From the NCBI GenBank assembly GCA_019689675.1, contig JADGGZ010000001.1:1912-65911 (forward strand): a DNA stretch of 64,000 nt. The letters run 5' to 3'. Position 1 is the first letter of the stretch, and each line of letters opens with the position of its first letter. This DNA is from Rhodospirillales bacterium (GTDB lineage Bacteria; Pseudomonadota; Alphaproteobacteria; ATCC43930; CGMCC-115725). Made by a program: the position numbers and the translations under genes. This document shows positions 11,203-57,520 of the stretch, piece by piece. The notes below the pieces were generated by a model. That model saw only the letters and a program-made list of their open reading frames with translations. It was not told the origin of the DNA and did no database searches.

Positions 11203-11281
11203 CGCGGATCCCCCTCATGAGGCCGCTCTTCTCTCGTCGTGATCGCTATGCAGGCGGGAGCATGCCGAAAGGAGGCGAGAC

Positions 11282-12673: not shown

Positions 12674-12684
12674 GCCCCTCGGGG

Positions 12685-12712
12685 TTGTGCAGGCGGCCTC
12701 CCTAGGCATAAT
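12685..12712 (+). promoter_or_regulatory. possible sigma70-type promoter (TTGTGC-N16-CATAAT)
   Basis: The hexamers stand out in GC-rich DNA. The -10 element ends 9 nt before the ATG at 12722, which would give a near-leaderless transcript. Pattern match only. Confidence 0.25.
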
Positions 12713-12721
12713 GCAGGTTCT

Positions 12722-17498: not shown

Positions 17499-18482
<984 letters not shown>

Positions 18483-18537
18483 GGTTTTCTTAGGGCCGGT
18501 TCAGGCCCATCTATTGCCCGAATGGGAAAAAGGGGAG

Positions 18538-18555
18538 GGGGCGCCGCGGCGCCCC
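18538..18555. terminator. perfect 18-bp GC palindrome between mdh and sucA (possible attenuator or terminator)
   Basis: GGGGCGCCGCGGCGCCCC equals its own reverse complement. There is no T-tract after it. Confidence 0.3.
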
Positions 18556-18564
18556 CCTGACTGC

Positions 18565-21417
<2,853 letters not shown>

Positions 21418-21454
21418 CTACTTCCGCGTCTCTTCTCTCGTCCGAGGACTTCCG

Positions 21455-22681
21455 ATGACCGACATCACAGTGCCGACGCTCGGCGAGAGCGTGACCGAGG
21501 CGACCGTCGCCAAGTGGCTGAAGAAGGCCGGCGAGGCCGTCGCGCAGGACGAGCCGCTCGTCGAGCTCGAGACGGACAAGGTGACGCTCGAGGTGAATGC
21601 GCCGACGGCGGGCGTGCTCTCCGAGATCGCTGCGCCCGAAGGCGCCACCGTCAATGTCGGCGGCCTCCTCGGGCGGATCGGCGACGGCGCCGCCGCGACG
21701 CCCGCGCCGGCGAAGAAGGCGGCGGCGCCGGCCGCCGCGCCGCCGGTTGCCGCGGAGAAGCCGCAGCCCGCTGCGGCGCCGAGCGCGCTCGAGCGGTCGG
21801 GGCCCGCCGTGCGCAAGCTCATCGAAGAAAAGGGGCTCGATCCCGCCGCCATCGCCGGCACCGGCAAGGACGGGCGCATCACCAAGGAGGACGTCCTCGC
21901 GCATCTCGAGAAGGCTGCGCCGGAGGCGCGCGCCCCGGCGCCGGCAGCGGAGGTCCGCGAGGCGCCGCCGCGCGAGACCGGCCCCCGCGAGCATCGCGTG
22001 CGCATGTCGCGCCTGCGCAGGCGGATCGCCGAGCGCCTCAAGGAGGCGCAGAACACCGCGGCGATGCTGACGACCTTCAACGAGATCGACATGAGCGCCG
22101 TCCTCGCGCTGCGCGAGAAGTATCGGGACGTCTTCGAGAAGAAGCACGGCGTCCGGCTGGGCTTCATGTCGCTCTTCGTCAAGGCCTCGATCGTCGCCTT
22201 GAAAGAGCTCCCCGCGATCAACGCCGAGATCGACGGCGAGGACATCGTCTACAAGAACCACTACGACTTCGGCATCGCCGTCGGCACCGAACAGGGTCTC
22301 GTCGTGCCGGTGGTGCGCGACTGCGACCGGCTCTCGTTCGCCGAGATCGAGAAGAAAATCGCCGATCTCGGGCGCCGCGCGCGCGACGGAAAGCTCAGCC
22401 TCGAGGAGCTGTCGGGCGGCACGTTCACGATCACGAACGGCGGCATCTACGGCTCGCTCATGTCGACGCCGATCCTGAACCCGCCGCAGTCGGGCATCCT
22501 CGGGATGCACAAGATCGAGAAGCGGCCGGTCGCGATCGGCGACAAGGTCGAGATCCGGCCGATGATGTACGTCGCGCTCTCCTACGATCATCGCATCGTC
22601 GACGGGCGCGAAGCGGTAACCTTCCTCGTGCGCGTGAAGGAGTGCCTCGAGGATCCCGAGCGGATGCTGTTCGAGATCTGA
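21455..22681 (+). CDS. sucB: dihydrolipoyllysine-residue succinyltransferase (E2o)
   Basis: Lipoyl domain ([10 protein letters not shown]), an Ala/Pro linker, E3-binding region, and catalytic domain with DHRIVDG. Confidence 0.95.
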
Positions 22682-22689
22682 TGAGCGCC

Positions 22690-22800
22690 TCCCCGCTCTC
22701 GGGAGAGGGACGGACCCGCGAAGCGGGGGGTGAGGGCCTCTCGCGGGATCCCGCGCGTTCGCCGACCGCCCTCACCTGGGCCCTCTGCCGCGGACGGAAG
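22690..22800. repeat. REP-like structured intergenic element (three nested or adjacent hairpins)
   Basis: CCCGCgaaGCGGG (22715-22727). GGTGAGGGC (22729-22737) pairs with GCCCTCACC (22768-22776). These enclose the perfect palindrome CGCGGGATCCCGCG (22742-22755). Confidence 0.4.
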
Positions 22801-22817
22801 AGGGAAGAGAGGAGCGC

Positions 22818-24209
22818 ATGGCAGACAGTTTCGACCTTTTGGTGATTGGTGCGGGACCCGGCGGCTATCCGGCAGCGATCCGCGCGGCGCAGCTCGGGAT
22901 GAAGGTCGCCTGTGCCGAGATGCGCGAGACCTTGGGCGGGACGTGCCTCAATGTCGGATGCATCCCCTCCAAGGCGCTGCTCCAATCCTCCGAGAAGCTC
23001 GAGTCGGCGCGGCACGCGCTCGCGCAGCACGGCATCAGGCTGAAGGGGATCGAGGTCGATCTCGCGGCGATGCTCGCGCGAAAGGACAAGGTCGTCTCCG
23101 ACAACGTGCGCGGCATCGAGTTTCTGTTCAAGAAGCACAAGATCGAGTGGCTCAAGGGCAAGGCGCGGCTCGCCGGTCCCGGCAAGGTCGAGGTCGCCGG
23201 CCGTACCGTGTCGGCGAAGAACATCGTCATTGCCACCGGATCCGACGTGATGCCTCTGCCTGGCGTCGACATCGACGAGAAGCGCATCGTCTCCTCGACG
23301 GGCGGGCTCGCGCTCGACGCCGTGCCGAAGAAAATGGTCGTCGTCGGCGCCGGCTATATCGGACTGGAGCTCGGCTCCGTATGGCGGCGTCTCGGCGCCG
23401 AGGTCACGGTCGTCGAGTTCCTCGACCGCGTCACACCCGGCATGGACGCCGAGCTCGCCAAGCACCTGCAGCGGATCCTCACGCGGCAAGGCATGAAGTT
23501 CCAGCTCGGCAGCAAGGTCACCGGGGCGAAGAACGGGAAGAACGCCGTCACGCTCGTCGTCGAGCCGGCGAACGGCGGCGACAAGTCGGAGCTGAAGGCC
23601 GACGTCGTCCTGGTCGCGATCGGGCGGCGTCCCTACACCGAAGGGCTCGGGCTCGAGAGCGTCGGCATCCAGACCGACAACCGCGGCCGCATCCCGGTCG
23701 ACAAGCAGTACCGCACGGCCGCCGAGGGCATCTACGCGATCGGTGACGTGATCGCCGGGCCGATGCTCGCGCACAAGGCCGAGGAGGAGGGCGTCGCGGT
23801 CGCCGAGATCATCGCCGGGCAGAAGCCGCATATCGACTACGACGCGATTCCCTCGGTGGTCTACACTTGGCCCGAGGTCGCGACGGTCGGCAAGTCGGAG
23901 GAAGATCTGAAGGCGGACGGGCGCGAATATCGCGTCGGCAAGTTCCCGTTCAGCGCGAACGGCCGCGCCCGTGCCAACGGGGATACCGAGGGTTTCGTGA
24001 AAATCCTCGCCGACGCCAGGACCGACCGGGTCCTCGGCGTGCACATCATCGGTCCCGACGCGGGGACGATGATCGCCGAGGCGGCGCTCGCGATGGAGTA
24101 CGGCGCCTCTTCGGAGGACATCGCCCGCACCTGCCATGCCCATCCGACGCTCAACGAGGCGGTGAAGGAGGCGGCGCTCGCCGTCGCGGGGCGGGCCCTC
24201 CATATTTAG
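22818..24209 (+). CDS. lpdA: dihydrolipoyl dehydrogenase (E3)
   Basis: DLLVIGAGPGGYPAAIRAAQLG...GGTCLNVGCIPSK, 463 aa. Confidence 0.95.
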   Translation: MADSFDLLVIGAGPGGYPAAIRAAQLGMKVACAEMRETLGGTCLNVGCIPSKALLQSSEKLESARHALAQHGIRLKGIEVDLAAMLARKDKVVSDNVRGIEFLFKKHKIEWLKGKARLAGPGKVEVAGRTVSAKNIVIATGSDVMPLPGVDIDEKRIVSSTGGLALDAVPKKMVVVGAGYIGLELGSVWRRLGAEVTVVEFLDRVTPGMDAELAKHLQRILTRQGMKFQLGSKVTGAKNGKNAVTLVVEPANGGDKSELKADVVLVAIGRRPYTEGLGLESVGIQTDNRGRIPVDKQYRTAAEGIYAIGDVIAGPMLAHKAEEEGVAVAEIIAGQKPHIDYDAIPSVVYTWPEVATVGKSEEDLKADGREYRVGKFPFSANGRARANGDTEGFVKILADARTDRVLGVHIIGPDAGTMIAEAALAMEYGASSEDIARTCHAHPTLNEAVKEAALAVAGRALHI

Positions 24210-24213
24210 GCGC

Positions 24214-24582
24214 GTGGAGCACGAGCCCTGCCGCCTTTCCGAGTCCGAGCGCCGGGTCTTGCGTGCGCGCGCCGCGGCCAGGATGCGCCCCATCACCGTG
24301 CATCCTCCGAGGCGCTCGGCCTGGCGGCGCTGGGGCGTGATCGGCCTGGGCTGGACCTTCATCGTTCTCGGCGCCCTCGGAATGTTCCTACCGGTTCTGC
24401 AGGGTTTTCTTTTCCTCGCGATCGGAATCGCGCTTCTGGCGCGCGAGGTCGAATGGGTCCGCCGCCGCCGCGAGCAGTTTTATGACCGCCACCCCACGCT
24501 CCGCGCATGGAACGACAAGGCGGAGCAGTGGATTGAACGGCAGGGACGCCGCGTCGTCTCGTTCTTCCGCGGGCGCGCTTGA
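24214..24582 (+). CDS. small two-TM membrane protein (PGPGW/YbaN-like)
   Basis: WGVIGLGWTFIVLGALGMFLPVLQGFLFLAIGIALLAREVEW. The start is uncertain (GTG 24214 or ATG 24283). Confidence 0.5.
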   Translation: MEHEPCRLSESERRVLRARAAARMRPITVHPPRRSAWRRWGVIGLGWTFIVLGALGMFLPVLQGFLFLAIGIALLAREVEWVRRRREQFYDRHPTLRAWNDKAEQWIERQGRRVVSFFRGRA

Positions 24583-24613: not shown

Positions 24614-24847
24614 ATGCTAGGCGGCCCGCTCGGCAAGCTCCTCCTTCTCATCGTCGTGATCGCCGCGGTCTGGTACGGCGTCAAATACATTGGCCGGGTC
24701 AACCAGATCCGCGAAGAGCAGCGACGCCGCGCGCCGCGCCCGGACGGGCGGTCCCGCCAGATCGACGACATGGCGAAATGCCGCGTCTGCGGCGCCTACG
24801 TCACGGCCGACGCGCGCAACTGCGGCCGCGCCGACTGCCCCTTCTGA
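24614..24847 (+). CDS. small membrane-anchored protein with C-terminal Cys4 zinc-ribbon-like motif
   Basis: 77 aa with an N-terminal TM (LLLLIVVIAAVWYGV) and CRVCGAYV...CGRADCPF. Confidence 0.5.
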   Translation: MLGGPLGKLLLLIVVIAAVWYGVKYIGRVNQIREEQRRRAPRPDGRSRQIDDMAKCRVCGAYVTADARNCGRADCPF

Positions 24848-24851
24848 TCCC

Positions 24852-25607
24852 TCATCCGCTCAGCGTCTGCCCGCCGTCGACGCTGATCACCTGGCCGGTG
24901 ACCCAGCTCGCCAAGGGCGAGGCGAGGAAGAGCGCGACGTTCGCGACTTCTTCGGGCGTGCCGAGCCGGCCGAACGCGATGCGCTTCAAGACGTTGTTGT
25001 AGAGCGCGGGATCTTCCGTCTTTCGCCGCTCCCAGGTGCCGCCCGGGAACTCGATCGAGCCCGGCGTGATGCAGTTCACCCGGATGCCTTTCGGCGCGAG
25101 CAGCGCCGCCTGCGACGTCGTGTAGTTGATGACCGCGGCCTTCACCGCCGCGTAGGCCGGCGTCCGCGTCGAAGGCTTGAGGCCGGAGATCGAGGAGATG
25201 TTGACGATGCTGCCGCGCGCCTTCGCGAGGTGCGGCTCCGCCGCGCGAGAGGCGCGGACGACCGCGAGGAGATCGACCGCGATTCCCGCCGCCCAGGCGG
25301 CCTCGTCGTCGCCGAGCCCGAACCCCGACGCGTTGTTCACGAGAATGTCGATGCCGCCGAGCGCTTCGGCCGCCTCCGCGATGTAGCGCCCGATCGCCGC
25401 GCCGTCGGCGAGGTCGCAGACGGCGGCGTGCGCCTTCCGCCCGTGCGCGGCGAGCTCCGTCCGCGTCCGCTCGAGCGCCTGCGCGCCGCGCGCGCAGATC
25501 GAGACGTCCGCGCCCGCCGCGGCGAACCCGGCGGCGATCGAGCGGCCGATGCCGCGGCTGCCGCCGCAGACGACGACGCGGCGGCCGGCGAAGTCGAAGC
25601 CGGTCAT
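24852..25607 (-). CDS. SDR-family oxidoreductase
   Basis: 251 aa with VCGGSRGIGRSIA, NNAS and YAAVKAA. The ATG overlaps the upstream stop (ATGA). Confidence 0.9.
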   Translation of the reverse strand: MTGFDFAGRRVVVCGGSRGIGRSIAAGFAAAGADVSICARGAQALERTRTELAAHGRKAHAAVCDLADGAAIGRYIAEAAEALGGIDILVNNASGFGLGDDEAAWAAGIAVDLLAVVRASRAAEPHLAKARGSIVNISSISGLKPSTRTPAYAAVKAAVINYTTSQAALLAPKGIRVNCITPGSIEFPGGTWERRKTEDPALYNNVLKRIAFGRLGTPEEVANVALFLASPLASWVTGQVISVDGGQTLSG

Positions 25608-26797
25608 TGCTGCGGCCGGAGCTTCTTCACCTCCTCGTCGGAGGGGAGGTACTTGGCCCCGTCGGCATAGTACCAGTCGGTCATCGTGCCGCGCCCTTCC
25701 TTGACGGTGGTCTTTCCCACATAGGCGCCCATCGTCGACTGATGGTCGGAGGCGCGGAACTTGGCCTTTCCGAACGGCGTGTCGAACTCGAGCCCCGCCA
25801 TCGCGGCCAGCATCTTCTCGGTGTCGGTCGATCCCGCCTTCTGCAGCATCGCCGCGATCGCCTTGATCGTCGAGTAGCCCACGATCGAGCCGAGGCGCGG
25901 GTAGTCGTTGTACTTCTTCCGGTAGGCGTCGCGGAACGCGGTGTGCTCGGGCGTGTCGATCTGCTCCCAGGGATAGCCGGTCACGATCCAGCCCTGCGGC
26001 GTCTCGTCCTTCAGCGGGTCGAGATACTCGGGCTCGCCGGTCAGGAGGGAGACGACGTGGCGGTTCTTGAAGAGCCCCCGCGTCTCGCCCTCGCGCACGA
26101 ACTTCGGCAGGTCGACGCTGAAGGTCACGTTGAAGATGGCATCGGGCTGTGCCGCGAGAAGGGCTTGTACCGTCGGCCCGGCCTCGATCTTCCCGAGCGC
26201 CGGCCACTGCTCGGCGACGAAGGTGACCTCGGGCCGCTTCTCCTGCAGCAGCTTCTTGAACGCCGCGACCGCGGACTGGCCGTACTCGTAGTTCGGCGCA
26301 ACCGTCGCCCACTTCTTCGCCGGCAGCTTGGCCGCCTCTTCGGCGAGCATCGCCGCCTGCATGTAGGTCGAAGGCCTCAGGCGCCACGTGTAGTGATTTC
26401 CCTTCGACCAGACGAGCGCGTCGGTGAGCGGCTCGGAGGCGAGATACATGATCTTGTTCTGCGCCGCGAAGTCGGCCAGGGCGAGGCCGACATTGGAAAG
26501 GAAGCCGCCCGCGATGAGCGCGACCTTCTCGTTCGCGACGAGCTCGTTGGCCGCGCGGACCGCGTCCTCGGGCTTCAGGCGGTCGTCGCGGCTCACGACC
26601 TCGAGCTTGCGCCCGAGAACGCCGCCCTTTTCATTCACCTCGTCGACGGCGAGCTGCCAGCCGTTCCGGTACGGCCCGGTGAACGCGGCCAGCCCGGTAT
26701 AGGAATTGATCTCGCCGATCTTGATCGGTTCCTGCTGCGCCGCCGCAGGCAGCGCGAGCGCGGCGAGCGCCAGCCCGAGAACGATGGATCTCTTCAT
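25604..26797 (-). CDS. ABC transporter substrate-binding protein (LivK / branched-chain amino-acid type)
   Basis: Signal peptide MKRSIVLGLALAALALPAAAQ, then IKIGEINSYTGLAAFTG... periplasmic-binding type I fold. SD AGGGGAG is upstream. Confidence 0.85.
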   Translation of the reverse strand: MKRSIVLGLALAALALPAAAQQEPIKIGEINSYTGLAAFTGPYRNGWQLAVDEVNEKGGVLGRKLEVVSRDDRLKPEDAVRAANELVANEKVALIAGGFLSNVGLALADFAAQNKIMYLASEPLTDALVWSKGNHYTWRLRPSTYMQAAMLAEEAAKLPAKKWATVAPNYEYGQSAVAAFKKLLQEKRPEVTFVAEQWPALGKIEAGPTVQALLAAQPDAIFNVTFSVDLPKFVREGETRGLFKNRHVVSLLTGEPEYLDPLKDETPQGWIVTGYPWEQIDTPEHTAFRDAYRKKYNDYPRLGSIVGYSTIKAIAAMLQKAGSTDTEKMLAAMAGLEFDTPFGKAKFRASDHQSTMGAYVGKTTVKEGRGTMTDWYYADGAKYLPSDEEVKKLRPQQ

Positions 26798-26810
26798 CTG
26801 CTGCTCCCCT

Positions 26811-27395
26811 TTATCGTTGGCCGTCCCAGACCGAAATTTCCGATGCTTTGAGCCCGCCCACGCGCGCATGCACGCGCGGGCCCGTCATCATCGCCAAGAC
26901 GTAGACGATTTCGTCGGCGCGCGGCGCGTCCGGAACCCCGACCTCGATCGCGTCGAAGTGGCTGCGCACATAGGCGGCGTTGACGTGATGAAGCGGCACG
27001 TCGAGACGCGCTCCGATCCCGGCGACCTTGGTCGCGGACGGAACGATCGCCTTCGCGCCGCCCAGCACCTCGCGCATGGCGTAGCCGCCAGCGACGTGAA
27101 AGAGCGCGCCGTGCTCGAGCTCTCCCGAGCCGCCGATGATCGAGCCCTTGCCATAGGCTTCGATCGCCTTCGGATCGCCGCCGAGCCCGGCGACCAAGCG
27201 GCGCGACATCTCGAGGCCGAGCGGCTTCAGCGCCTCGATCATGGGCGTGATGTCGGGCTCGTAGCGGCCGGCATAGGGATTGTGGATGACCGCGCACACC
27301 GCGCCCTTCAGCGTCGGGCGGGGTGGCGGCGGGCCGAACTCGTGGCGGATCTCCTCGACCACGAGATGGAACTTGCGGACGCGCACCAGCTCCAT
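26811..27395 (-). CDS. 'amino acid synthesis' family protein (PF06684/DUF1185-like)
   Basis: 194 aa: MELVRVRKFHLVVEEI...AVIHNPYAGRY...AYGKGSIIGGSGELEHGA. SD AGGAG lies in the 9-nt spacer. Confidence 0.7.
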   Translation of the reverse strand: MELVRVRKFHLVVEEIRHEFGPPPPRPTLKGAVCAVIHNPYAGRYEPDITPMIEALKPLGLEMSRRLVAGLGGDPKAIEAYGKGSIIGGSGELEHGALFHVAGGYAMREVLGGAKAIVPSATKVAGIGARLDVPLHHVNAAYVRSHFDAIEVGVPDAPRADEIVYVLAMMTGPRVHARVGGLKASEISVWDGQR

Positions 27396-27404
27396 GCGGC
27401 TCCT

Positions 27405-28355
27405 TCAGGAAATGACGCGAACTTCGCCTTGCAATAGCAGCACGGCGGCGATGATCCGTCCAGCGCGCTGCAGCGCCCGCGCGCGTTCGGCCCCGCGGTC
27501 GAGCGCGGCGGCGATCGTCTGCCGCGGAAGAGCTCCGACCTCGACGGTGACGAGGCGCTCGCCGAGATCGCTGTCGGGATCGAGCGCGCGGGCGGGCGCA
27601 CGCCGCACCGCGGCGTCACCGGCGTCGACGGCGTTGGCGACGAGCGTCGCCGCCGCGTCCGCTTCGGCGGCCGAGCGCGCGAGCACGGTCGCCGCATCGG
27701 CGATCCCGAGCGAGAAGCTGCGCCCGCCTGCGCCGCTCGTCGCGATGCCGCGGATGGGGCTCTCGGCGTCGATCGTGGCGATGCTGTCGATCGCCGGATG
27801 CCGGACGTCCCCGACGATCCCGGCGCGAATCCGTTCGCCGGGGGCGAGATGGAGCGCGATGTCGCCGCCGTCGTTGACATAGGCCTTGGCGAGCCGGCGG
27901 CCGCGCAGCATCGCCGCCAGCACCTCGTCGGCGACGGCGCCCGCGACCGCCGCCATCGGCGTGATGAATTCCGATGCCGCGAACGGCGAGCAGGCGGCCA
28001 CCATCCGCCGCGCGGTGGGACCCTCGACGCCGGGATGCGTCGCATCGAGGGGGCGGCGGAGAAGCGGCAGCTCTTCGACGAGGCCCGGCAGGATTCCGGG
28101 GAAGACCTCCCATGCCTGCGCGTAGGCGGCGCGGACTTCGTCTTCCTCTCCCCACGCCTCGATGACGAGATCGATCGGGCCGTGATTGAGATGGAGGCGT
28201 CGATCGGGAAGAAAGCGCGCCTGCGCGCCGTTGGCCGCCGTGGCGGCCGCGCTTTCGCTCGCCGCCGTCCCGGCGCGAGCGGGGGACCATGCGGGGTCGC
28301 GCGGGTTCCCGGTTCGCTGCGGGCGATGTGCCGCCGGCGATGAAGCGATCGTCAC
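27405..28355 (-). CDS. UPF0280 family protein (ApbE-like fold)
   Basis: ...RLHLNHGPIDLVIEAWG...TPMAAVAGAVADEV...ATSGAGGRSFSLGIADA. The GTG start overlaps the upstream TGA (GTGA). Confidence 0.7.
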   Translation of the reverse strand: MTIASSPAAHRPQRTGNPRDPAWSPARAGTAASESAAATAANGAQARFLPDRRLHLNHGPIDLVIEAWGEEDEVRAAYAQAWEVFPGILPGLVEELPLLRRPLDATHPGVEGPTARRMVAACSPFAASEFITPMAAVAGAVADEVLAAMLRGRRLAKAYVNDGGDIALHLAPGERIRAGIVGDVRHPAIDSIATIDAESPIRGIATSGAGGRSFSLGIADAATVLARSAAEADAAATLVANAVDAGDAAVRRAPARALDPDSDLGERLVTVEVGALPRQTIAAALDRGAERARALQRAGRIIAAVLLLQGEVRVIS

Positions 28356-29776
28356 TTCACCTCGAGCGGCCACGGATTCTCCTCGCGCCATGGCTCGGCA
28401 CGGGCGTTGGTCGCTGCGAGCACGTCCTCGAGGCGGCGCACCGAGTCCATATGCCCGCCGATCGCCTCGTAGTCGGAAAGCCGCATCGTGAACTCGATCG
28501 GGCTCACGAGCGCCGGCGTCGGGACGTAGCCGAACGCCTTGTCCGGCATCTGCGTCACGTCGACCATGAACGTGATGCCGCCGCCGGGCCAGACATAGGT
28601 CGGCGCCCCGCCGCAGGTGACGCGCGTCAGGAGCTCCTTCACCGAGCGCGTGAGGCGCACCGGGTTCTCGGTGACGCCGGCGCGCAGGCTCCCGCCCGCG
28701 CCCGCCATGTAGAGCACCGAGACGAGCGCGGGCTCGCAGTTCTCGCCGATGCGGTCCACGACCTTGCGGACGGGTTCCGGCATCGGCGCCTTCACCGGGC
28801 GAAGATTCTCGTCGAGGACGAACCACTCGGCTTCCTGACCCGTCGTCGAGACCATGAGGAGGCGGAGTCCCGGATAGGCGGTCTTGGGATCGATCCTTTC
28901 GATGATCGCGAGCGGGTCGGTGATGTCGGTCCCGCCCCATCCGGTTCCGGGCTCGGCGACCTGGAAGTAGCGGCCGGGCGTCGATTTGCGCCCGCGGACG
29001 CGTATTCCCTGCGGCTTCATGTCGAGGAAGCGCCCGGCCTGGTGCTCGGAGAGGACGCCGGTGATGTGGTCGTCGACGACGATCACCTCGTCGACATGCC
29101 CGTGCCATTGCTTTGCGAACATGCCGATCGTCGCCGAGCCGCAGCCGACCCGCATCCGCTCCTCGCGCGCCCCGTTGATGATCGGCGGCCGACCCGCCGC
29201 GATCGTCATCGTCGCGCCGCCGTCCACGGCGAGCTCGACGGGCTCCTTGTTGCAGAGCTTGAGGAGCGTGTCGCAGGTGACGACGCCCTCCTTCTTGCTG
29301 CCGCCGGTGAGGTGCCGGACGCCGCCCAGGGCCAGCATCTGCGAGCCGTATTCCGCCGTCGTCACGTGTCCGACCTGCTCGCCTTCGACTCTTACCGGCG
29401 CCTGCTCCGGCCCGACGAAGCGGTCGGTGTCGATCTTCACCTTGACGCCGCAATAGCTGAAGATTCCCTCGGTCACGACCGTGACCACGTCGACGTCGTC
29501 GGCCTTGCTGGCGACGATGAAAGGCGCGGGCTTGTAGTCGGGATAGGTCGTGCCGGCGCCGATCCCGGTGACGAAGATCTCGCCGTTCCAGCCTTCGGCT
29601 TGGGCGAGGAACGGCACCATCCGCCCGGCCCTGCGCTGCGCGACGACGACCGGGTCGAGGCGCGTGAGCTTGCCGGCGACGTTGCCGTAGCGGTCGCAGG
29701 CGCCGGTGCGACCCTCGCGGATGCGGCAGAGAACCGGGCAGGCGTCGCAGGTGACGATGCCCGCGTCTTCACTCAC
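28352..29776 (-). CDS. 6-hydroxynicotinate reductase-like Fe-S protein
   Basis: 474 aa with an N-terminal Cys cluster CDACPVLCRIREGRTGAC. It resembles proteins annotated as 6-hydroxynicotinate reductase. The GTG start overlaps the upstream gene by 8 nt. Confidence 0.65.
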   Translation of the reverse strand: MSEDAGIVTCDACPVLCRIREGRTGACDRYGNVAGKLTRLDPVVVAQRRAGRMVPFLAQAEGWNGEIFVTGIGAGTTYPDYKPAPFIVASKADDVDVVTVVTEGIFSYCGVKVKIDTDRFVGPEQAPVRVEGEQVGHVTTAEYGSQMLALGGVRHLTGGSKKEGVVTCDTLLKLCNKEPVELAVDGGATMTIAAGRPPIINGAREERMRVGCGSATIGMFAKQWHGHVDEVIVVDDHITGVLSEHQAGRFLDMKPQGIRVRGRKSTPGRYFQVAEPGTGWGGTDITDPLAIIERIDPKTAYPGLRLLMVSTTGQEAEWFVLDENLRPVKAPMPEPVRKVVDRIGENCEPALVSVLYMAGAGGSLRAGVTENPVRLTRSVKELLTRVTCGGAPTYVWPGGGITFMVDVTQMPDKAFGYVPTPALVSPIEFTMRLSDYEAIGGHMDSVRRLEDVLAATNARAEPWREENPWPLEVK

Positions 29777-32405
29777 GGACCGCCTCCTTCAGCGCGGCAC
29801 GGACCCGGTCCGGTGTCGCCGGCACATGGCGCAGGCGCACGCCGGTCGCGTCGTAAATGGCGTTGAGGATCGCCGGCGCCGTCGGAATGAGCGCCGGCTC
29901 GCCGATGCCCTTGGCGCCCCACGGCCCGAGCGGCTCGGGGTCCTCGATCAGGATGCACTCGATCGGCGGCACGTCGCCGATCGTCGGGATGAGATAGTCG
30001 TGGAGATTCTCGGTGCGGCCGGGCACGTACTCCTCCATGAGCGCGAGGCCGAGCCCCTGCGCGACGCCGCCATGGATCTGGCCCTCGACCTGGGTGGGGT
30101 TGATCGCGCGGCCGACGTCATGCGCGGCGACGATCCGCGTCACCTTGACGGTGCCGAGCGCGCGGTCGACCTCGACCTCGGCCATCTGCGCGGCGAAGGC
30201 GTAGGTCGCGTACGGCACGCCCTGGCCGTTGGCGTCGAGCGGCGTCGTCGGCGGGTCGAACGTCCCTTCGCCCACGAGGTCGGCGGCGCCGACGACGCCC
30301 CCGTTCTCGATCTCGACCCGGTTCTTGCCGGTGCGCGCGAGGATCTTGCGGCGAAGATCCTCGCCGGCGCGCTTCGCCGCAGCGCCCGAGATGAAGGTCT
30401 GGCGCGAGGCCGAGGTCTTGCCGGCGTCGGCGGTGAGGTCGGTGTCGCCCATGACGACGCGGATCGCTTCGACCGGCACGCCGAGCGCATCGGCGACGAT
30501 CTGCGTCATGATCGTGTTGGAGCCTTGGCCGATGTCGACCGCGCCGTTGAAAAGCATGATGCGGCCGGCGCTATCGAGCGCGACGCGCATCGTCGAGGGG
30601 TTCGACATCGAGGTGTTGCCGATGCCGTACCACATGCAGGCTAGGCCGACGCCTCTTCCCGGGGTGCGCCGCGCCTTCGCCGACTGCCAATGCGGCCTCA
30701 GCGCATCGAGGCATTGCGCGATGCCGACGCTCGCCTCGAGCCGCTGCCCCGTCGCGATCGCGTCCCCTTTTCTCAGCGCGTTGCGGTAACGGAACTCGAG
30801 CGGGTCGATGCCGAGCTTTTCCGCGAGCTCGTCGATGAGGGTCTCGGTCGCGACGGCGATCTGCGGCACGCCGAAGCCGCGGAAGGCGCCCGACGGCGTG
30901 CCGTTCGTGTAGATCGCGCGGCCGACCGCGCGGACGTTCGGCACGACGTAGGGGCCGCTCGCATGAACGGGGACGCGGTTGGCGACCGTCGGTCCCCACG
31001 AGGCGTAGGCGCCCGTGTCGAGCTCCGCCTCGACATCGACGGCGAGAAGGCGTCCCTCCGCATCGGCCGCGATCCGCGCCGCGATCCGCGCCGGATGACG
31101 TTTCGTGGTCGAGGCCATCGACTCGGGGCGCGTGTAGACGCAGCGCACCGGGCGCTCCAGAACCCAGGCGGCCGTGGCGATGAGCGGCTGGACCGAAAGG
31201 TCGAGCTTGCCGCCGAAGCCGCCGCCGACCGCCGAGGGGATGATGCGCACCCGCTCCGGCGCGATGCCGAGCACGAGCGCGATCTCGTCCCGGTCCATGT
31301 AGGGCGTCTGCGTGGTGACGAAGATCTCGATCCGCTCGCCGACGCGCCGCGCGAATCCGGCCTCCGGCTCGATATAGGCGTGCTCGACGTAGGAGGTGCG
31401 GTAGACGCCCTCGGCGACCGCCGCGGCGCGCTCGATGCCGGCGGCGACGTCGCCGCGCTGCAGGCGGCCCTCGACGAGAACGTTGTCGGGTCGGTTCTCG
31501 TGCAGCGCCGGTCCACCGCGCGCCGTCTCGAAGGTGACCGGCGGACGCGGCGTCCATTCGATCGGCAGCTCGTCGTCGCCGATCGACTCCACGGTGACGC
31601 GGTCGCCGACGAGGGCGAGCACCGCCTCGCCGCGAAAGCGCACCTCGTTCTCGGCGAGAACCGGCTGGTCCTTGATGTCGGGGTAGATGCCGAAGCGGTT
31701 GCGGCCCGGCACGTCGGCTGCGGTGAGGACGCGGACGAGCCCCGGCCACGCGGCGTGGAGCGGCGCGAAGTCGCCGAGCGTGAAGCGCGCGCTCGGATAG
31801 GGCGAGCGCACGACGCGCAGCCAGAGCGCGTCGGCGGGCGCCTGGTCCCCGCCGTACTTCTCCGTGCCGTCGAGCTTGGCGATGCCGTCCACCTTCGGGA
31901 GCCGCGCGCCCACGGCCTCGCCCGGGCGCGGCGCGACGGCTTTCGCTTCGAGGCCGAGGCTCAGCACCGCCTCGACGATCTTGCGGTAGCCGGTGCAGCG
32001 GCAGAGCACGCCGCCGAGCGCGTCGAGCACGGCGGCCTCGTCGGGGCGCGGATTGCGCTGCAGGAGGTCGGCGGCCGCCATCAGCATTCCCGGCGTGCAG
32101 ATGCCGCACTGCGCCGCGCCGTAGCGGTGGAACGCCTCCTGAAGGCTCGAGAGCCGGCCGCCGCGCGCGAGGCCCTCGACGGTGACGACATTGCGTCCCT
32201 CGGCCTGCGCCACCGGCACGAGACAGGCGCAGACCTGGGCGCCGTCGAGGAGGACCGTGCAGGCGCCGCAATCGCCGGCGTCGCACCCGATCTTCGTTCC
32301 GGTAAGGCCGAGCGCGTCGCGCAAGACATGCGCGAGCCGTGCGGCGGGTTCCGCCTCGACGCTGACGGGCGTGCCGTTGACGGTGAGGGCGAACGCGGCC
32401 TTCAT
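29769..32405 (-). CDS. xanthine-dehydrogenase-family molybdenum hydroxylase, fused [2Fe-2S] + molybdopterin-binding subunit
   Basis: 878 aa. The N-terminus carries GCDAGDCGACTV and CGICTPGM...CRCTGY (two 2Fe-2S sites), followed by aldehyde-oxidase/XDH a/b hammerhead and MoCo domains. ATGA overlap with the FAD subunit. Confidence 0.9.
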   Translation of the reverse strand: MKAAFALTVNGTPVSVEAEPAARLAHVLRDALGLTGTKIGCDAGDCGACTVLLDGAQVCACLVPVAQAEGRNVVTVEGLARGGRLSSLQEAFHRYGAAQCGICTPGMLMAAADLLQRNPRPDEAAVLDALGGVLCRCTGYRKIVEAVLSLGLEAKAVAPRPGEAVGARLPKVDGIAKLDGTEKYGGDQAPADALWLRVVRSPYPSARFTLGDFAPLHAAWPGLVRVLTAADVPGRNRFGIYPDIKDQPVLAENEVRFRGEAVLALVGDRVTVESIGDDELPIEWTPRPPVTFETARGGPALHENRPDNVLVEGRLQRGDVAAGIERAAAVAEGVYRTSYVEHAYIEPEAGFARRVGERIEIFVTTQTPYMDRDEIALVLGIAPERVRIIPSAVGGGFGGKLDLSVQPLIATAAWVLERPVRCVYTRPESMASTTKRHPARIAARIAADAEGRLLAVDVEAELDTGAYASWGPTVANRVPVHASGPYVVPNVRAVGRAIYTNGTPSGAFRGFGVPQIAVATETLIDELAEKLGIDPLEFRYRNALRKGDAIATGQRLEASVGIAQCLDALRPHWQSAKARRTPGRGVGLACMWYGIGNTSMSNPSTMRVALDSAGRIMLFNGAVDIGQGSNTIMTQIVADALGVPVEAIRVVMGDTDLTADAGKTSASRQTFISGAAAKRAGEDLRRKILARTGKNRVEIENGGVVGAADLVGEGTFDPPTTPLDANGQGVPYATYAFAAQMAEVEVDRALGTVKVTRIVAAHDVGRAINPTQVEGQIHGGVAQGLGLALMEEYVPGRTENLHDYLIPTIGDVPPIECILIEDPEPLGPWGAKGIGEPALIPTAPAILNAIYDATGVRLRHVPATPDRVRAALKEAVRE

Positions 32406-33220
32406 GCGAGCGTCGCGATCGCGCGCTCGATGAGCGTCCGTGCCGCATCGCGCCGATAGGCGGCGGTGCCGCGCACGTCGTCGATCGGTGCGAGCGGCGC
32501 GAGATGCGAATCCGACACCGCGATGCCGCGCGTGCCGGCGAGGTCCCGCTCGAGCGCGGGAAGGCGCCGCGCCGTCTCCGCGCAGGCGCCGACCGCGATC
32601 CGGGCGGCCGCGATCGTGCCGTCCTCGGCGCGCTCGATCACCGCCGCGACCATGACGATCGAGATGACGAGATAGCGCCGCGCGCCGAGCTTCAAGAAGG
32701 TGGAGCGCGTCTCGCGCCTCGGTTTCGGGACGATAATCGCCGCGACGAGTTCGTCGGGATGACGCGCCGTGCGCCGGTTGCCGAGCACGAACTCGGCGAC
32801 CGCGAGGCGGCGTGTGCCGCGCGCCGAGACGAGCTCGACCTTCGCATCGAGCGCGAGGAGGCAGGGAATGCCGTCCGCCGCGGGCGAGGCGTTGCAGAGA
32901 TTGCCGGCGATCGTGGCCGCGTTCTGGATCTGCACGCCGCCGACTTCGCGCGCGGCGCGCTTCAGCCCGTCGAAGAGCGGCGGAAGCTCCGCCTCGATGA
33001 GCTCCGTCCAGGTCGTCGCGGCGCCGATACGAAACCCGTCGGAGGTCTCGGCGATGCCGCGCAAATCCGCCACCCGCGTGATGTCGAGAATGTCTTCGCG
33101 GATCGCGCGGCCGACGCGGGCGGGATAGAAATCGGTCCCTCCGGCAAGGATCGTCAACGGCTGCGCCGCGAGCGCCGCTACTGCCTCCTCGATCCGCTCC
33201 GGGCGCAAGTACACCGGCAT
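32402..33220 (-). CDS. xanthine-dehydrogenase-family FAD-binding subunit (CoxM-like)
   Basis: 272 aa: LTILAGGTDFYP, IQNAATIAGNLCNASPAADG, and the CO-dehydrogenase flavoprotein C-terminal region. Confidence 0.9.
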   Translation of the reverse strand: MPVYLRPERIEEAVAALAAQPLTILAGGTDFYPARVGRAIREDILDITRVADLRGIAETSDGFRIGAATTWTELIEAELPPLFDGLKRAAREVGGVQIQNAATIAGNLCNASPAADGIPCLLALDAKVELVSARGTRRLAVAEFVLGNRRTARHPDELVAAIIVPKPRRETRSTFLKLGARRYLVISIVMVAAVIERAEDGTIAAARIAVGACAETARRLPALERDLAGTRGIAVSDSHLAPLAPIDDVRGTAAYRRDAARTLIERAIATLA

Positions 33221-33233: not shown

Positions 33234-33249
33234 CGTTCGCGTACGAACG
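33234..33249. promoter_or_regulatory. inverted repeat CGTTCG-N4-CGAACG upstream of the hydroxylase operon
   Basis: It lies 14-29 nt upstream of the FAD-subunit ATG (33220), so it could be an operator or a 5'-UTR hairpin. Pattern only. Confidence 0.2.
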
Positions 33250-33323: not shown

Positions 33324-35852
33324 TCAGCGCTTCGCTTTCATGGCGGGATCGCCCGCCGGATCGCCGGCCTTGCCGAAGAGATGGGCGTTGCGCGCGAGGA
33401 AGAGCTGGAAGGTCTCGTAAAGCGACCGTTCCGCGGCATCGGCCTCTCGCGGCGTCGCCTCGAGCGACTGCAGAAACTGCTCGAAGAGGCGGCGGAGCTC
33501 GGGATCGAGCTGCGCCATCTCCGCCGGTTGAGGCGCGGTTCCAGCGCGGGCGGCTTCTGCGGCGGCGATCGCGGCCTCCGCCTCGCGGAAGAGCTGGGCC
33601 AGCTCCTCCGGATCGAAGGGCTCGTCCCGCGGCGGCGCCCCCACGATGGCGTCGATCGTCGCCGCCGCAGCAGAATCCGCCGCAGCAGAATCCCCCGCGG
33701 CGGGCTCCGACGCGACGGCGACCGCGCTCGCTGCCGGCTCGGGCGGCGCCGCCTCGGCAGGCTCGGAAGGTTCCGTCGCCGCGACGGGCGCGGGCTCGGC
33801 GGACCCGGCGGACGTCTCGTCGCCATCCACCGACGCGAGGTCGGGCGGCCCGGCTGCCGCTTCCTGAGAGGCGGGCGGCTCGGCCGCTTCCGCCGCGACG
33901 GCTTGGGCGGGCGGCGGAGATGTCTCGGGTGCCTCGGCCGCCGTCCTTTCCGCCGGTTCGGCCGGCGGCTGGGCGCCGGGCTCGGGGGACGTCGGGATTT
34001 CGGCCGCGACCGCCGCTTCGGCTGTCGCCGGCGGCGACGGCTCCGCCGCGGGAGCCGCGTCGGCGTTCGCCGAAGCCTCGGGCGCGTTCGCGGCCTCGGG
34101 CGGTTCGGGAAGGGGTGCGGAAGGCGACGGCGAATCGGCATCGGCAATCTCGGCCGATTCGGTGGTCGCCAGGGGCGCGGGCGCGGGGGAGTCCGGCAGT
34201 TCAGCCGCGTCCGTCTCCTCGATCGCCGCAGGCGGCGGGGGCGGCTCGACCGCGGCGTCGGCGACGGCGTTCTCCAAAGCGGCGGGAGGATCGGGTGGCG
34301 CCGTGCTCTCCACCGCCGACGGCGCTTCTGGCGAGGCGGGCTCGGCCGCAGCCCGCGCCGCCGCTTCGCCGACGGCGGGCTCGGAGGCGGCCGGCGTCGC
34401 GGCGACCGGCAGCAGCACGGGATCGGTCCTGGAGGACTCCGCTGCCGAGAGCGTGTTCGGGAGAGTGCCGCCGACCGGCTCCGCCGCCGGAAAAGGCGGC
34501 GGCTCGGGCGGGCCCTCTTCCGTCACGCGGGCGGGAGGCGCGGAAGGCGCAGCCGTCTCCACGACGGGTGCAGCGTCGGCCGCTATTGCGGGCGACGCTC
34601 CATCCGGCGAAGGGCGCGGTGCCGCGGCCGGCATCGCTGCGGTCGTGTCCTCCTCGCGCGGTCCGGGCAGGTTCGTGGCATTGCTTCCGCCCGACGGCAG
34701 CACCAGAGCTGTCGGCCCCGGAGCAGGAGCGACGGGGTCGTTTTGGTGCTCGAAAACGCGCGGACCGAGCAGAAGCACGGGAGTGGCGACCGCAACCAGC
34801 GCGATGGCGGCGACGGCGCTCGCCATGAGCGCCGTTCGTCGCAGTTGCCGCGAAGCGGCGGTCGGCGGCGGTGCTGCTCCAGCCGCGCTCGGCGGCGACG
34901 GCGCGGGGTGGGGCGGCCGTTCGTTCGGGCGTGGCGCGATGGTGATCGGCGGAAGGCCGCTCGATGCGGGCGCAGACGCCGGTCGGGCGTCCTCGACCGC
35001 CGCCCGCAGCGCTTTCTCGAGCGCCGCCTCTTCAGGCGCCGCCGCAGGCGGGACCGGGGGAGGCAACGGCGCCGAAGGGGTTGCCGGCGCGGTGCCGTCG
35101 GCGATGTCGGCGAGAGTGACCGTCGAGCGTCCTGCGCCGACCGCACGCTCGAGCGCCTCGCTCGCGAGCCGCGTCAGCGGGCCCGGGAGGCCGCCCGACA
35201 GGTCTCCGAGCGCCTCCATTACGGGTCCCGGAAAGGTCTCGAGCGGAAGCCGGGCGGCACGAAGGCGCGATCTCAGGAAATGCTCGACCTGACCCGGCGA
35301 CAGGCGCGGCATCGCGATCGTGCCGACAACCGCTTCCACGAGGGTCCTGCCGCGCAGCAGCTCGGACGAAGCCTGCCGCGTCGCGAGCAGCACTGTGACC
35401 GCGGGGAAGCCCTTCCCGGGCGCTGCGAGCTCGGCGAGCGCTGCGAGCGCCGAAGGGGAGAGCTTCTCGGCATCATCGACGAGAAGCGCCGGGTAGGGCA
35501 TCGTCACGGGCGAGAGCACCCGGCGGATTCGCGCGAGCGGCGCCTCGTTTTCCGAAGGCGCCGCCTTCAGCGCCTCGAGCACCGCCTTGTAGAGGTCCTC
35601 GGTTGTCGTCCGTGGCGTCGCCGAGATCGTTTTCGCGACGATGCCGGGCTCGGCGTCGATCGCCAGCTGGCGGAGCGCGATGGTCTTGCCGCTGCCCTCC
35701 GGGCCGGTCAGCACCACGATGCCGTGCCGGTCCTGGAGGTGGCCCACGAGGATCTGCAGCACACGATCGAGCGAGGCGCTGACATGCGGCCGGCCGACGG
35801 CGGCGTCGCGCAGCAGCTTCGCAGCGATCACGGTTTCTGCGAGCGGCGGCAT
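33324..35852 (-). CDS. ExeA-like AAA ATPase with one TM helix and a long acidic Pro/Ala/Glu-rich C-terminal region
   Basis: Start MPPLAETV follows AGGAGGG. Walker A is GPEGSGKT and Walker B is ALLVDDAE. The TM helix is at about aa 341-363 (ALMASAVAAIALVAVATPVLLLG). Then come ~380 aa of low complexity and a ~90-aa helical end. Confidence 0.75.
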   Translation of the reverse strand: MPPLAETVIAAKLLRDAAVGRPHVSASLDRVLQILVGHLQDRHGIVVLTGPEGSGKTIALRQLAIDAEPGIVAKTISATPRTTTEDLYKAVLEALKAAPSENEAPLARIRRVLSPVTMPYPALLVDDAEKLSPSALAALAELAAPGKGFPAVTVLLATRQASSELLRGRTLVEAVVGTIAMPRLSPGQVEHFLRSRLRAARLPLETFPGPVMEALGDLSGGLPGPLTRLASEALERAVGAGRSTVTLADIADGTAPATPSAPLPPPVPPAAAPEEAALEKALRAAVEDARPASAPASSGLPPITIAPRPNERPPHPAPSPPSAAGAAPPPTAASRQLRRTALMASAVAAIALVAVATPVLLLGPRVFEHQNDPVAPAPGPTALVLPSGGSNATNLPGPREEDTTAAMPAAAPRPSPDGASPAIAADAAPVVETAAPSAPPARVTEEGPPEPPPFPAAEPVGGTLPNTLSAAESSRTDPVLLPVAATPAASEPAVGEAAARAAAEPASPEAPSAVESTAPPDPPAALENAVADAAVEPPPPPAAIEETDAAELPDSPAPAPLATTESAEIADADSPSPSAPLPEPPEAANAPEASANADAAPAAEPSPPATAEAAVAAEIPTSPEPGAQPPAEPAERTAAEAPETSPPPAQAVAAEAAEPPASQEAAAGPPDLASVDGDETSAGSAEPAPVAATEPSEPAEAAPPEPAASAVAVASEPAAGDSAAADSAAAATIDAIVGAPPRDEPFDPEELAQLFREAEAAIAAAEAARAGTAPQPAEMAQLDPELRRLFEQFLQSLEATPREADAAERSLYETFQLFLARNAHLFGKAGDPAGDPAMKAKR

Positions 35853-39032: not shown

Positions 39033-40382
39033 CTATTTTTCCCGGAACGCCCGGTGGAAGCTGTCGAGGATCGGCGCCAGGGCGTAGAGCGCCACCGTGG
39101 TCTCGCCGGTCTTGATCATCGCTTCGGCCGGCATGCCGGGGTAGAGCTCGACCTCGCCGGCGAGGCGCTCGAGCTGCTTCTCGTCGAGGCGCACCTTCGC
39201 CGCGTAGTACGGCTGGTTCGTCCTCTGATCGACGAGCCGGTCGGCCGAGACGTAGATGACCTTGCCGTCGATGTCCGGCGTGCGCCGCTGCTTGTAGGGG
39301 ATCAGCCGCACATGCGCCGCGAGCCCCTCGCGCACGACGTTGATGTCCTCGGGTCTCACATGGACCGTGACGACGAGGTTGTCCTTCGCCGGAACGAGAT
39401 CCATGAGCGGCTCGCCGGCCCGGATGACGCCCCCGCGGGTATGAACCTTGAGGTCGGTGACGATGCCGTGCTGCGGCGCCTTGACCTCGATCCGGCTCAG
39501 GACGTCGGCCGCCGCCTGCATCTGCTCGGTGAGCTCGTGAATCTTCTGCTGCGTGTCGCGCAGCTGCGTCGCCACCTCGTTCTGGGTGTCGTTCTGCTGA
39601 TTGAGGATCTGGACCTCGCTCTCGGCGATGGTCTGCTGCGCCTTGGCGATGAGGGCGACGAGCTCGCCCCGGCGGCCTTCGATGTCGGCGAGGTCGCGCT
39701 GAAGCTGGAGGAGGCGCGGCTTGCGCTCCAGCCCCTTGTCCACCAGCGCCTTGAGGCCGTTGATCTCCTCGTTGATGAGGGCGATGCGCTGCTCCGCGGC
39801 GATCTCCTGCGCGCGATAGCCGACGATCTCCTCCTTCACCTGCGCCATGCGCTGCTCGATCACCTGGCGCTTCGATTGGAACAGCTCGCGCCGGGTGGCG
39901 AAGATGCGCTCCTGACCGGCCATCACCTGCGCGACCGAGGGATCGTTCTTCTGCAGCTCGAGCTGCGCCGGCCAGGTGATCGTGTCGCGGCCGTCGCGTT
40001 CGGCGATGAGCCGCGCCTCCCGCGCGAGCGCGTCCCAGTACTGGCCCTGGAGCGCGGCAAGCGTCGTGCGCGGCTTGGTGTCGTCGAGCCGGATCAGCGG
40101 CTGGCCCGGCTGCACCTCGTCGCCGTCCTTGACGAGAATCTCGCCGACGATGCCGCCTTCGAGGTGCTGGATGGTCTTGCGGTTCGTCTCGGCCTCGAGA
40201 TAGCCCGATCCGATCGCCGCGCTTTCGAGCGGGGCGAACACCGACCAGATCCCGAAGACCCCGATGAAGAGCGCGACGGTGGCGAGCCCGGCGATCGCGA
40301 TGCCGCGTGCCATCGCGATCGGCGTCTCGGGCGGAGAGGACTGCTCGATCTCCTCGACGACGGCGAGGCTGGTGCTGCTCAT
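39033..40382 (-). CDS. HlyD-family type I secretion periplasmic adaptor
   Basis: 449 aa with an N-terminal TM, long coiled coils, and the C-terminal ...AGEVELYPGMPAEAMIKTGETT motif typical of T1SS MFPs. Confidence 0.9.
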   Translation of the reverse strand: MSSTSLAVVEEIEQSSPPETPIAMARGIAIAGLATVALFIGVFGIWSVFAPLESAAIGSGYLEAETNRKTIQHLEGGIVGEILVKDGDEVQPGQPLIRLDDTKPRTTLAALQGQYWDALAREARLIAERDGRDTITWPAQLELQKNDPSVAQVMAGQERIFATRRELFQSKRQVIEQRMAQVKEEIVGYRAQEIAAEQRIALINEEINGLKALVDKGLERKPRLLQLQRDLADIEGRRGELVALIAKAQQTIAESEVQILNQQNDTQNEVATQLRDTQQKIHELTEQMQAAADVLSRIEVKAPQHGIVTDLKVHTRGGVIRAGEPLMDLVPAKDNLVVTVHVRPEDINVVREGLAAHVRLIPYKQRRTPDIDGKVIYVSADRLVDQRTNQPYYAAKVRLDEKQLERLAGEVELYPGMPAEAMIKTGETTVALYALAPILDSFHRAFREK

Positions 40383-40398
40383 GGCTTCCTCTCCTTCC

Positions 40399-42135: not shown

Positions 42136-42292
42136 CGGGCTCTTCCGGGCACTGAGTGAGGTCCGCGGAAGGTGGCGGGATATGGTTAATGAAAATTCAA
42201 GCCCGTCTCGCGAGAGGGTTCTGATACTTCACGAAACCTATGGTTTTGTTTGAGACACTCTCGATTAACTTTCTAATGCGACTTTCCTCATC

Positions 42293-47045: not shown

Positions 47046-47111
47046 TGTCGCTCAGGGGAACGATACGGGTGAGGGTGCTGTTCCTTCGGGTAAAGCCCGT
47101 CCAATCAGGAG

Positions 47112-57508: not shown

Positions 57509-57520
57509 GGTTAAGTCGTT

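Follow-up and report, generated by a model that had tools for sequence, protein, structure and literature searches.

In the anaerobic fermentation of nicotinate by Eubacterium barkeri, a nicotinate dehydrogenase of the xanthine dehydrogenase (XDH) family (NdhFSLM) is followed by 6-hydroxynicotinate reductase (Hnr, EC 1.3.7.1) and an enamidase. Conversion of nicotinate via 6-hydroxynicotinate to 1,4,5,6-tetrahydro-6-oxonicotinate (THON) in an aerobe is the route of Azorhizobium caulinodans, as credited to Kitts (1989/1992) where that work is cited in PMC3511419 and PMC9304392. Nicotinate and 6-hydroxynicotinate both support growth of Bradyrhizobiaceae strain SG-6C, which has an Hnr homologue that is 42% identical to the E. 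barkeri enzyme (PMC3511419), and its Hnr gene cluster is conserved in A. caulinodans ORS571, B. japonicum USDA110 and R. palustris HaA2 (PMC3511419, Fig. 4). Here, we describe a seven-gene operon in a 64,000-nucleotide stretch of DNA from a Rhodospirillales bacterium (GenBank assembly GCA_019689675.1, contig JADGGZ010000001.1, positions 1,912 to 65,911), which is referred to as the window. The operon is likely to be the front end of reductive (THON) nicotinate catabolism in this aerobic alphaproteobacterium. The first two reactions and the protein families are like those of E. barkeri. The nic cluster of Pseudomonas putida shares the first step, a Mo-dependent hydroxylation of nicotinate at C6, but then proceeds oxidatively via the decarboxylating monooxygenase NicC and a ring-cleaving dioxygenase, whereas the route in the window would be reductive via Hnr.

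Direct reading of the sequence places seven consecutive genes on the minus strand at 24852-33220, from G1 (33220) to G7 (24852). These genes, and a palindrome in front of them, are as follows:

32402-33220, minus strand: G1, putative nicotinate dehydrogenase FAD-binding subunit, 272 aa, PF00941 and PF03450
29769-32405, minus strand: G2, putative nicotinate dehydrogenase fused 2x[2Fe-2S] and molybdopterin subunit, 878 aa, Pfam domains Fer2, Fer2_2, Ald_Xan_dh_C, MoCoBD_1 and MoCoBD_2
28352-29776, minus strand: G3, short-form Hnr homologue, 474 aa
27405-28355, minus strand: G4, UPF0280 protein with an ApbE-like fold, 316 aa, NF003322
26811-27395, minus strand: G5, PF06684 ('AA_synth', DUF1185) protein, type A paralogue, 194 aa
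25604-26797, minus strand: G6, LivK/Peripla_BP_6 periplasmic substrate-binding protein with a signal peptide, 397 aa
24852-25607, minus strand: G7, classical short-chain dehydrogenase/reductase (SDR) oxidoreductase, 251 aa, adh_short and adh_short_C2
33234-33249, no strand: palindrome CGTTCG-N4-CGAACG, 14-29 nt 5' of the G1 start codon

The G1/G2 and G6/G7 junctions are 4-nt ATGA overlaps, the G2/G3 junction is an 8-nt overlap (GTGAGTGA) and the G3/G4 junction is a 4-nt GTGA overlap. G4 and G5 are separated by a 9-nt spacer (AGGAGCCGC) with AGGAG inside, and G5 and G6 by a 13-nt spacer (AGGGGAGCAGCAG) with AGGGGAG inside. Other gene callers choose an alternative in-frame GTG start for G4 at 28373, which gives a protein of 322 aa, and G4 is coupled to G3 with either start. 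The GC content of the window is about 70% and spurious open reading frames (ORFs) are many; the seven operon frames were singled out by codon-position GC. As short overlaps are common in operons of 70% GC, the conserved gene order described below is the stronger evidence for a functional unit. A pattern scan for promoters and terminators returned nothing above shuffle expectation, and this includes terminator-like signals inside the operon. No paralogues of the seven operon proteins were found elsewhere in the window. A pair of 477 and 195 aa proteins at 11243-13258, suspected to be a second Hnr/PF06684 pair, proved to be a histidine kinase and a DUF1499 protein. The operon is a real, coherent unit. 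The seven genes and their junctions had been given exactly in the original prediction, which was made from the sequence alone, and all of its domain calls were confirmed, those for G1, G2 and G4-G7 by Pfam or NCBIfam models.

By sequence comparison, G1 and G2 constitute an XDH-family hydroxylase that is specifically related to the E. barkeri nicotinate dehydrogenase. The best solved-structure match of G1 is NdhF, the FAD subunit of that enzyme (3hrd_C, E = 1.5e-25). For the molybdenum cofactor (MoCo) region of G2 (residues 164-570), NdhL (3hrd_A) scores 285.7 bits versus 176.8 bits for the next PDB entry, and the C-terminal and N-terminal parts of G2 match NdhM (3hrd_B, 218 bits) and NdhS (3hrd_D, 131 bits). 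G2 is the counterpart of NdhS, NdhL and NdhM in one chain, these three E. barkeri proteins being fused in the 878-aa protein of the window. Over its full length, G2 scores best in the PDB against fused Desulfovibrio aldehyde oxidoreductases, because the FeS and Mo architecture is common to both. Unlike NicAB of P. putida, the hydroxylase in the window includes an FAD subunit and lacks a cytochrome c domain. G1 and G2 would form a two-subunit nicotinate dehydrogenase of the E. barkeri type (FAD; 2x[2Fe-2S] and Mo cofactor) that converts nicotinate to 6-hydroxynicotinate.

G3 is a member of the Hnr family and, judging from its sequence, a short form without the ferredoxin domain. Its homologues at 64-80% identity carry the name 6-hydroxynicotinate reductase in NCBI and JGI records. 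More than 8000 members of the family were scored, the best 120 of which are 74-97% identical to G3, and clustering at 50% identity left 1293 representatives. The motif C10-x2-C13-x3-C17-x9-C27 is invariant across the family, and the four cysteines together with 19 other positions are invariant in 21 sequences with identities down to 30%. Full-length relatives from anaerobes (Deltaproteobacteria, Desulfomonilaceae) are 30-46% identical to G3, and the forms among them with a ferredoxin domain are 38-46% identical over the full length. The N-terminus of this long form is longer by about 55 residues, which include two CxxCxxCxxxCP motifs (Pfam Fer4) and precede the C-x2-C-x3-C-x9-C motif. G3 begins 9 residues before the four-Cys motif and differs from the anaerobe homologues in lacking the N-terminal 2x[4Fe-4S] domain. 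E. barkeri Hnr is reported to contain a covalent flavin besides one [2Fe-2S] and two [4Fe-4S] clusters; this content fits the long form, and the ferredoxin domain is presumably present in that enzyme. G3 itself would reduce 6-hydroxynicotinate to THON.

No Pfam or NCBIfam model matches G3 and it has no sequence relative in the PDB. Of the HMM searches that had been proposed, those for UPF0280 and PF06684 gave scores above the cutoffs. A faint GCV_T_C Pfam match and a dimethylglycine oxidase fold match over about 90 columns of G3 were too weak and were not used. In two other proteins, P0131 (982 aa) and P0133 (969 aa), an Hnr core is joined to a GltD-like NAD(P)H/FAD module with Fe-S motifs or has this module inserted in it, and their sequences suggest self-sufficient forms of the reductase that depend on NAD(P)H. 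These fusions fit an Hnr catalytic core that is fed through Fe-S clusters. Apparent Hnr-UPF0280 and Mo-Hnr fusions in the library of representatives were set aside, as they were metagenome calls that are short or frameshifted.

For the census of related loci, genomes were scanned at one per species; this gave 595 relatives, and the best 80, which are 68-78% identical to G3, were kept. Homologues were located by tblastn with the seven window proteins and neighbours from two plasmid loci, and modules were counted over 50 loci. The same cluster architecture recurs in the 80 related genomes and in 26 plasmids. The FAD and Mo genes are directly upstream of Hnr in 54 of the 68 loci with enough flank, which bears out the coupling of an XDH-family hydroxylase to an Hnr-family reductase, and UPF0280 is directly downstream of Hnr in 64 of 69. 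G1 to G6 are orthologous (57-64% median identity) to genes of clusters with an enamidase and NicR-type regulators. On plasmids of Neorhizobium and Comamonadaceae, the Hnr-UPF0280-PF06684 module adjoins NicAB-type hydroxylases. The combination of two hydroxylase architectures with one reductase module points to 6-hydroxynicotinate as the common intermediate.

We consider it probable that the enzymes of the operon take nicotinate via 6-hydroxynicotinate to THON. Nicotinate or a related heterocyclic carboxylate had been proposed as the substrate in an aerobe, and the position of E. barkeri NdhL as the nearest solved relative of G2 supports nicotinate. Several observations weigh against the assignment. 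In tblastn searches with an enamidase orthologue, HyuA and HyuB as queries, neither an enamidase nor a hydantoinase/oxoprolinase (HyuAB) pair was found in the 64 kb. Also absent from the 64 kb are a Liv-type permease or ATPase for G6, a ferredoxin-NADP reductase (FNR), and any MarR or TetR gene akin to those in the sister clusters. With enamidase, HyuAB, MarR, FNR and Liv permease/ATPase all missing, the pathway is incomplete here and the identity of the substrate is predicted from homology. G3 is tied to E. barkeri Hnr through family members and the literature and not by a direct alignment, its AF2 model is poor (pLDDT 63), and a Foldseek search of the PDB with this model returned no match below E = 0.4. 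The window does not encode THON ring opening.

The same hydroxylate-then-reduce logic could act on a different substrate, such as isonicotinate, picolinate, quinolinate or a substituted nicotinate, but we regard this as unlikely. Substrate specificity is unreadable from sequence, none of the XDH-family models reaches its NCBIfam equivalog cut-off, and the downstream chemistry may differ, as the window lacks a ring-opening enzyme, MarR and a transporter and has a unique SDR appended. However, G2 is much nearer to the E. barkeri nicotinate dehydrogenase than to other solved XDH-family enzymes, G1 to G6 are orthologous to the genes of the enamidase/NicR-type clusters, and the palindrome upstream of G1 is common to those clusters.

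The pathway had been put forward as a candidate undescribed one. This does not hold: publications already describe both the reductive nicotinate route of aerobic alphaproteobacteria and its gene cluster (Azorhizobium; PMC3511419), and the genes of the cluster already have names in RefSeq (plasmids of Neorhizobium, Comamonadaceae, Sulfitobacter, Pleomorphomonas and Sagittula). The clusters of Azorhizobium (AZC_2790-2804, compared by its description), B. japonicum (blr3818-3830), R. palustris HaA2 and SG-6C (PMC3511419) are of the same type. Relative to them, the window has no enamidase, no permease or ATPase genes and no MarR, has one PF06684 paralogue rather than two, and has a terminal SDR that is unique to it. 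Relative to E. barkeri, the window has no enamidase or later fermentation genes, and its host is an aerobe. The operon is a reduced copy of the described cluster type, made up of the core of FAD, Mo, Hnr and UPF0280 genes with a type A PF06684, a binding protein and an SDR.

Among the 50 loci, an enamidase orthologue (PDB 2vun, E = 2e-111) is present in 18 and HyuA/HyuB in 15. No locus has both, so that 33 loci have one or the other and the remaining 17 have neither within 10 kb. The two modules are mutually exclusive, and examples among loci L007-L086 are L013, L016, L070 and L080 versus L044, L056, L060 and L068. This suggests that HyuAB provides another, ATP-dependent way to open the THON lactam ring in the related genomes. 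At least one PF06684 gene is found in 36 of the 50 loci and two in 17. Type B PF06684 is present in all 18 enamidase loci, in 1 of the 15 HyuAB loci, and no enamidase occurs in the 24 loci without type B (Fisher p ~9e-8, for loci that are not phylogenetically independent), which suggests that type B is an enamidase-specific partner. Type A follows UPF0280 and is not associated with either the enamidase (Fisher p = 0.24) or HyuAB (p = 0.55), and several complete FAD-Mo-Hnr-UPF0280-HyuAB clusters have no PF06684 at all. Three loci of the anaerobe type have the order FeS - FAD - Mo - amidohydrolase - Hnr(Fer4) - UPF0280, and one of these adds PF06684. As UPF0280 is beside Hnr even in enamidase-carrying anaerobe loci, it is a constant companion of Hnr, PF06684 is optional, and neither substitutes for the enamidase.

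These counts also bear on the earlier suggestion that in aerobes the clostridial enamidase and its successors are replaced by UPF0280, PF06684 and the SDR, with these proteins catalysing ring opening and the further processing of THON. In its favour, the window has neither an enamidase nor HyuAB, and the 17 related loci without either are in the same position. However, UPF0280 coexists with the enamidase, including in the anaerobe-type loci, related loci have an enamidase or HyuAB besides, type A PF06684 is associated with neither and is dispensed with in some complete HyuAB clusters, the SDR is confined to the lineage of the window, and the fold of UPF0280 is that of a flavin transferase, not a hydrolase. 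We find the suggestion very improbable.

G4 scores 375.5 bits against NF003322 (UPF0280; cutoff 290). In its AF2 model, which was built with 30 homologues (pLDDT 93.4, pTM 0.91), G4 has an ApbE-like fold. The top 40 PDB matches in Foldseek are 2o34 (DVU1097, a UPF0280 protein) and then solely flavin transferases, namely FmnB, ApbE from five species and Treponema and E. coli Ftp; they include 7esc, 7esa, 1vrm, 6nxi, 5mgy, 4ifw, 3pnd and 4xgv, with probabilities of 0.9-1.00 and TM scores of 0.3-0.5. Precomputed annotation of G4 homologues gives PF27030 (AbpE_bact), with a faint PF02424 match now and then. A profile search of the PDB with the UPF0280 alignment found 2o34 only and no ApbE, so the ApbE link stands on the fold and on a weak hhalign alignment. 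In this alignment of G4 with the ApbE of L089, NDGGD is paired with NAGGD, ATSG with ATSG and EADAAAT with EADALAT. We take these NxGGD, ATSG and ADAxAT stretches to be the FAD- and Mg-binding segments of ApbE.

G4 differs from the FMN transferases ApbE, Ftp and FmnB (PF02424) in that it belongs to a separate family, UPF0280 (subfamily NF003322), and has no signal peptide, lipobox or conserved His loop. Direct reading of its N-terminus (MTIASSPAAHRPQRTGNPRD...) shows no hydrophobic signal segment and no lipobox, which points to a cytoplasmic protein. The first approximately 40 residues are rich in Ala, Pro and Arg and show no conservation among homologues (query coverage about 86%), and the conserved part starts from about residue 43. 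As there is no alternative in-frame start before the conserved RLHLNHGPID segment, the N-terminal extension seems to be real in this lineage.

G4 is probably a maturation factor or partner of Hnr that loads or holds its flavin. The most likely of the more specific roles is that of a flavin transferase for Hnr which makes a covalent flavin, though we put this forward tentatively. A broader reading, which is also tentative and perhaps slightly more so, is that NF003322 UPF0280 proteins are dedicated cytoplasmic ApbE-type flavin transferases or FAD-handling partners of Hnr-family ring reductases, with separable roles for the two PF06684 types: type B would be an obligate partner of the enamidase and type A an accessory of the Hnr/UPF0280 module. 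The points that weigh against a transferase are that G4 does not match the Pfam ApbE model (PF02424), that the probability of the hhalign alignment is only 1.5%, and that the His-containing loop of ApbE is unaligned in G4. G3, the presumed client, has no canonical ApbE target motif ([S/T]GA[S/T]), it has no recognizable flavin-binding domain, no flavin site could be located in its model, and the covalent flavin in the argument is one reported for E. barkeri Hnr. T430, T387, C212 and Y143 of G3, which are invariant or nearly so in the aligned sequences, are only candidates for flavin attachment. A literature search for a function of UPF0280, DUF375 or PF27030, or for ApbE together with hydroxynicotinate, found nothing.

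A less likely role for G4, and a doubtful one, is that of a stoichiometric FAD-binding subunit, rather than a maturation enzyme, through which electrons from NAD(P)H enter in place of the missing ferredoxin domain. The translational coupling of G3 and G4, the universal adjacency of Hnr and UPF0280, and motifs for FAD and Mg that seem to be kept in an ApbE fold whose catalytic His loop is unaligned would all suit such a subunit, as would the lack of an FNR gene near Hnr in the 50 closest genomes. However, UPF0280 also adjoins the long-form Hnr, which already has a 2x[4Fe-4S] entry domain, the apparent Hnr-UPF0280 fusions look like gene-calling or frameshift artefacts, and clusters in Rhodobacterales, Rhizobiaceae and Comamonadaceae have a separate FNR beside Hnr.

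Of five plasmid loci that were inspected, four have an FNR gene beside the Hnr module, namely those of Neorhizobium (L005), Comamonadaceae (L006), Sulfitobacter pontiacus (L090) and Sagittula stellata (L092). This suggests that electrons usually pass from NADPH via FNR to the [2Fe-2S] cluster of the short-form Hnr. In the lineage of the window, electrons could come from a housekeeping FNR or perhaps from the hydroxylase. A rule that FNR accompanies Hnr only with a NicAB-type hydroxylase, while other hydroxylases pass electrons directly to Hnr, was rejected, as Sulfitobacter and Sagittula pair FNR with the FAD-type hydroxylase. The Sulfitobacter locus also includes genes for a CoA ligase, an acyl-CoA dehydrogenase, an enoyl-CoA hydratase and a 3-hydroxyacyl-CoA dehydrogenase, which fit the glutarate branch of the Azorhizobium pathway.

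Returning to the remaining genes of the operon, G5 scores 231.3 bits against PF06684 (cutoff 27) and matches the solved members 3byq (E = 6e-62) and 2qtp (E = 1e-40). It is 63% identical to the type A copy of Neorhizobium and 43% identical to the type B copy, which makes it type A, and it is the single PF06684 copy in the window. Its role would be that of an optional accessory. G6 scores 254 bits against Peripla_BP_6 (PF13458). Its orthologues in related loci (median identity 64%) are followed by a permease and two ATPases, and a binding protein with a permease, indicating an ABC transporter, is found in 21 of the 50 loci. As had been predicted, the binding protein of the window is without a transporter partner, and it may capture substrate in the periplasm and pass it to a transporter whose genes lie elsewhere. 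G7 scores 184 bits against adh_short_C2, and searches of the PDB and NCBIfam gave generic SDR matches only. Seven of the 50 loci have any SDR, and no orthologue more than 40% identical to G7 was found in the related loci except in the same-species contigs L001 and L002. The SDR and the transporter-less binding protein are lineage-specific, and G7 would be a lineage-specific addition to the operon.

The 103-nt gap 5' of G1 contains the perfect palindrome CGTTCGTACGCGAACG (33234-33249), which is the sole exact copy in the window. Allowing up to one mismatch, CGTTCG-N4-CGAACG is found 18-70 nt 5' of the FAD gene in L001, L019, L034, L045, L058, L059 and L071, and in MarR, Ena, SBP or Hnr intergenic regions in L086, L091 and L092. 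Over 1.58 Mb, 11 of its 17 matches fall in intergenic regions of the clusters. The palindrome is probably an operator for a MarR/NicR-type regulator encoded outside the window, of the kind found in many of the sister clusters; NicR of the P. putida nic cluster is of the MarR type. Transcription would start upstream of G1 and would be controlled by a repressor of this type bound to the palindrome.

The operon is flanked on both sides by genes unrelated to it. Downstream lie mdh, sucA, sucB and lpdA (17499-24209, plus strand), which converge on it. Just beyond the end of the operon are two small convergent ORFs on the plus strand (24337-24579 and 24650-24844); one encodes a DUF454-like membrane protein (81 aa in L001), and the other a 77-aa protein that has a single hydrophobic stretch and, at its C-terminal end, a CxxC...CxxxxC motif. 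Upstream, the strand that carries the operon has genes for an AAA_22/STAND-type protein, an SBP_bac_5 protein and an NMT1_3 binding protein. The large AAA_22/STAND-type NTPase gene (33327-35846, minus strand) is immediately 5' of the operon, where the sister clusters have MarR. Compared with the copy in L001, the N-terminal approximately 300 residues of this NTPase are 89% identical and the rest is 69% identical or not alignable. This divergence contrasts with the DNA identity of about 94% elsewhere, JGI metagenome contigs being about 94% identical to the window with an identical gene order. Other genes in the window include an HlyD and ABC exporter pair resembling type I secretion systems (39036-42228), a stand-alone LigD primase-polymerase domain gene (46125-47051), and rpoN with an adjoining LptB-like ATPase gene (56033-57520). 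An Rfam scan of the window gave a tRNA at 61518-61601 as the sole match.

The pathway itself adds little to what has been described, and the value of the locus is in the UPF0280 lead and in the two forms of the downstream module. The alternation of an enamidase with type B PF06684 and HyuA/HyuB, which are of the ATP-dependent lactam hydrolase type, suggests an undescribed way of opening the THON ring in the related genomes, though not in the window. The association of Hnr, a family with no Pfam model and no structure, with an ApbE-fold UPF0280 protein in both aerobes and anaerobes is a testable lead for the function of this uncharacterized protein family and for how Hnr acquires its flavin. 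If UPF0280 is indeed a flavin transferase or FAD-handling partner of Hnr, this would be the first function for UPF0280, and would extend ApbE-type flavinylation to a cytoplasmic catabolic enzyme.

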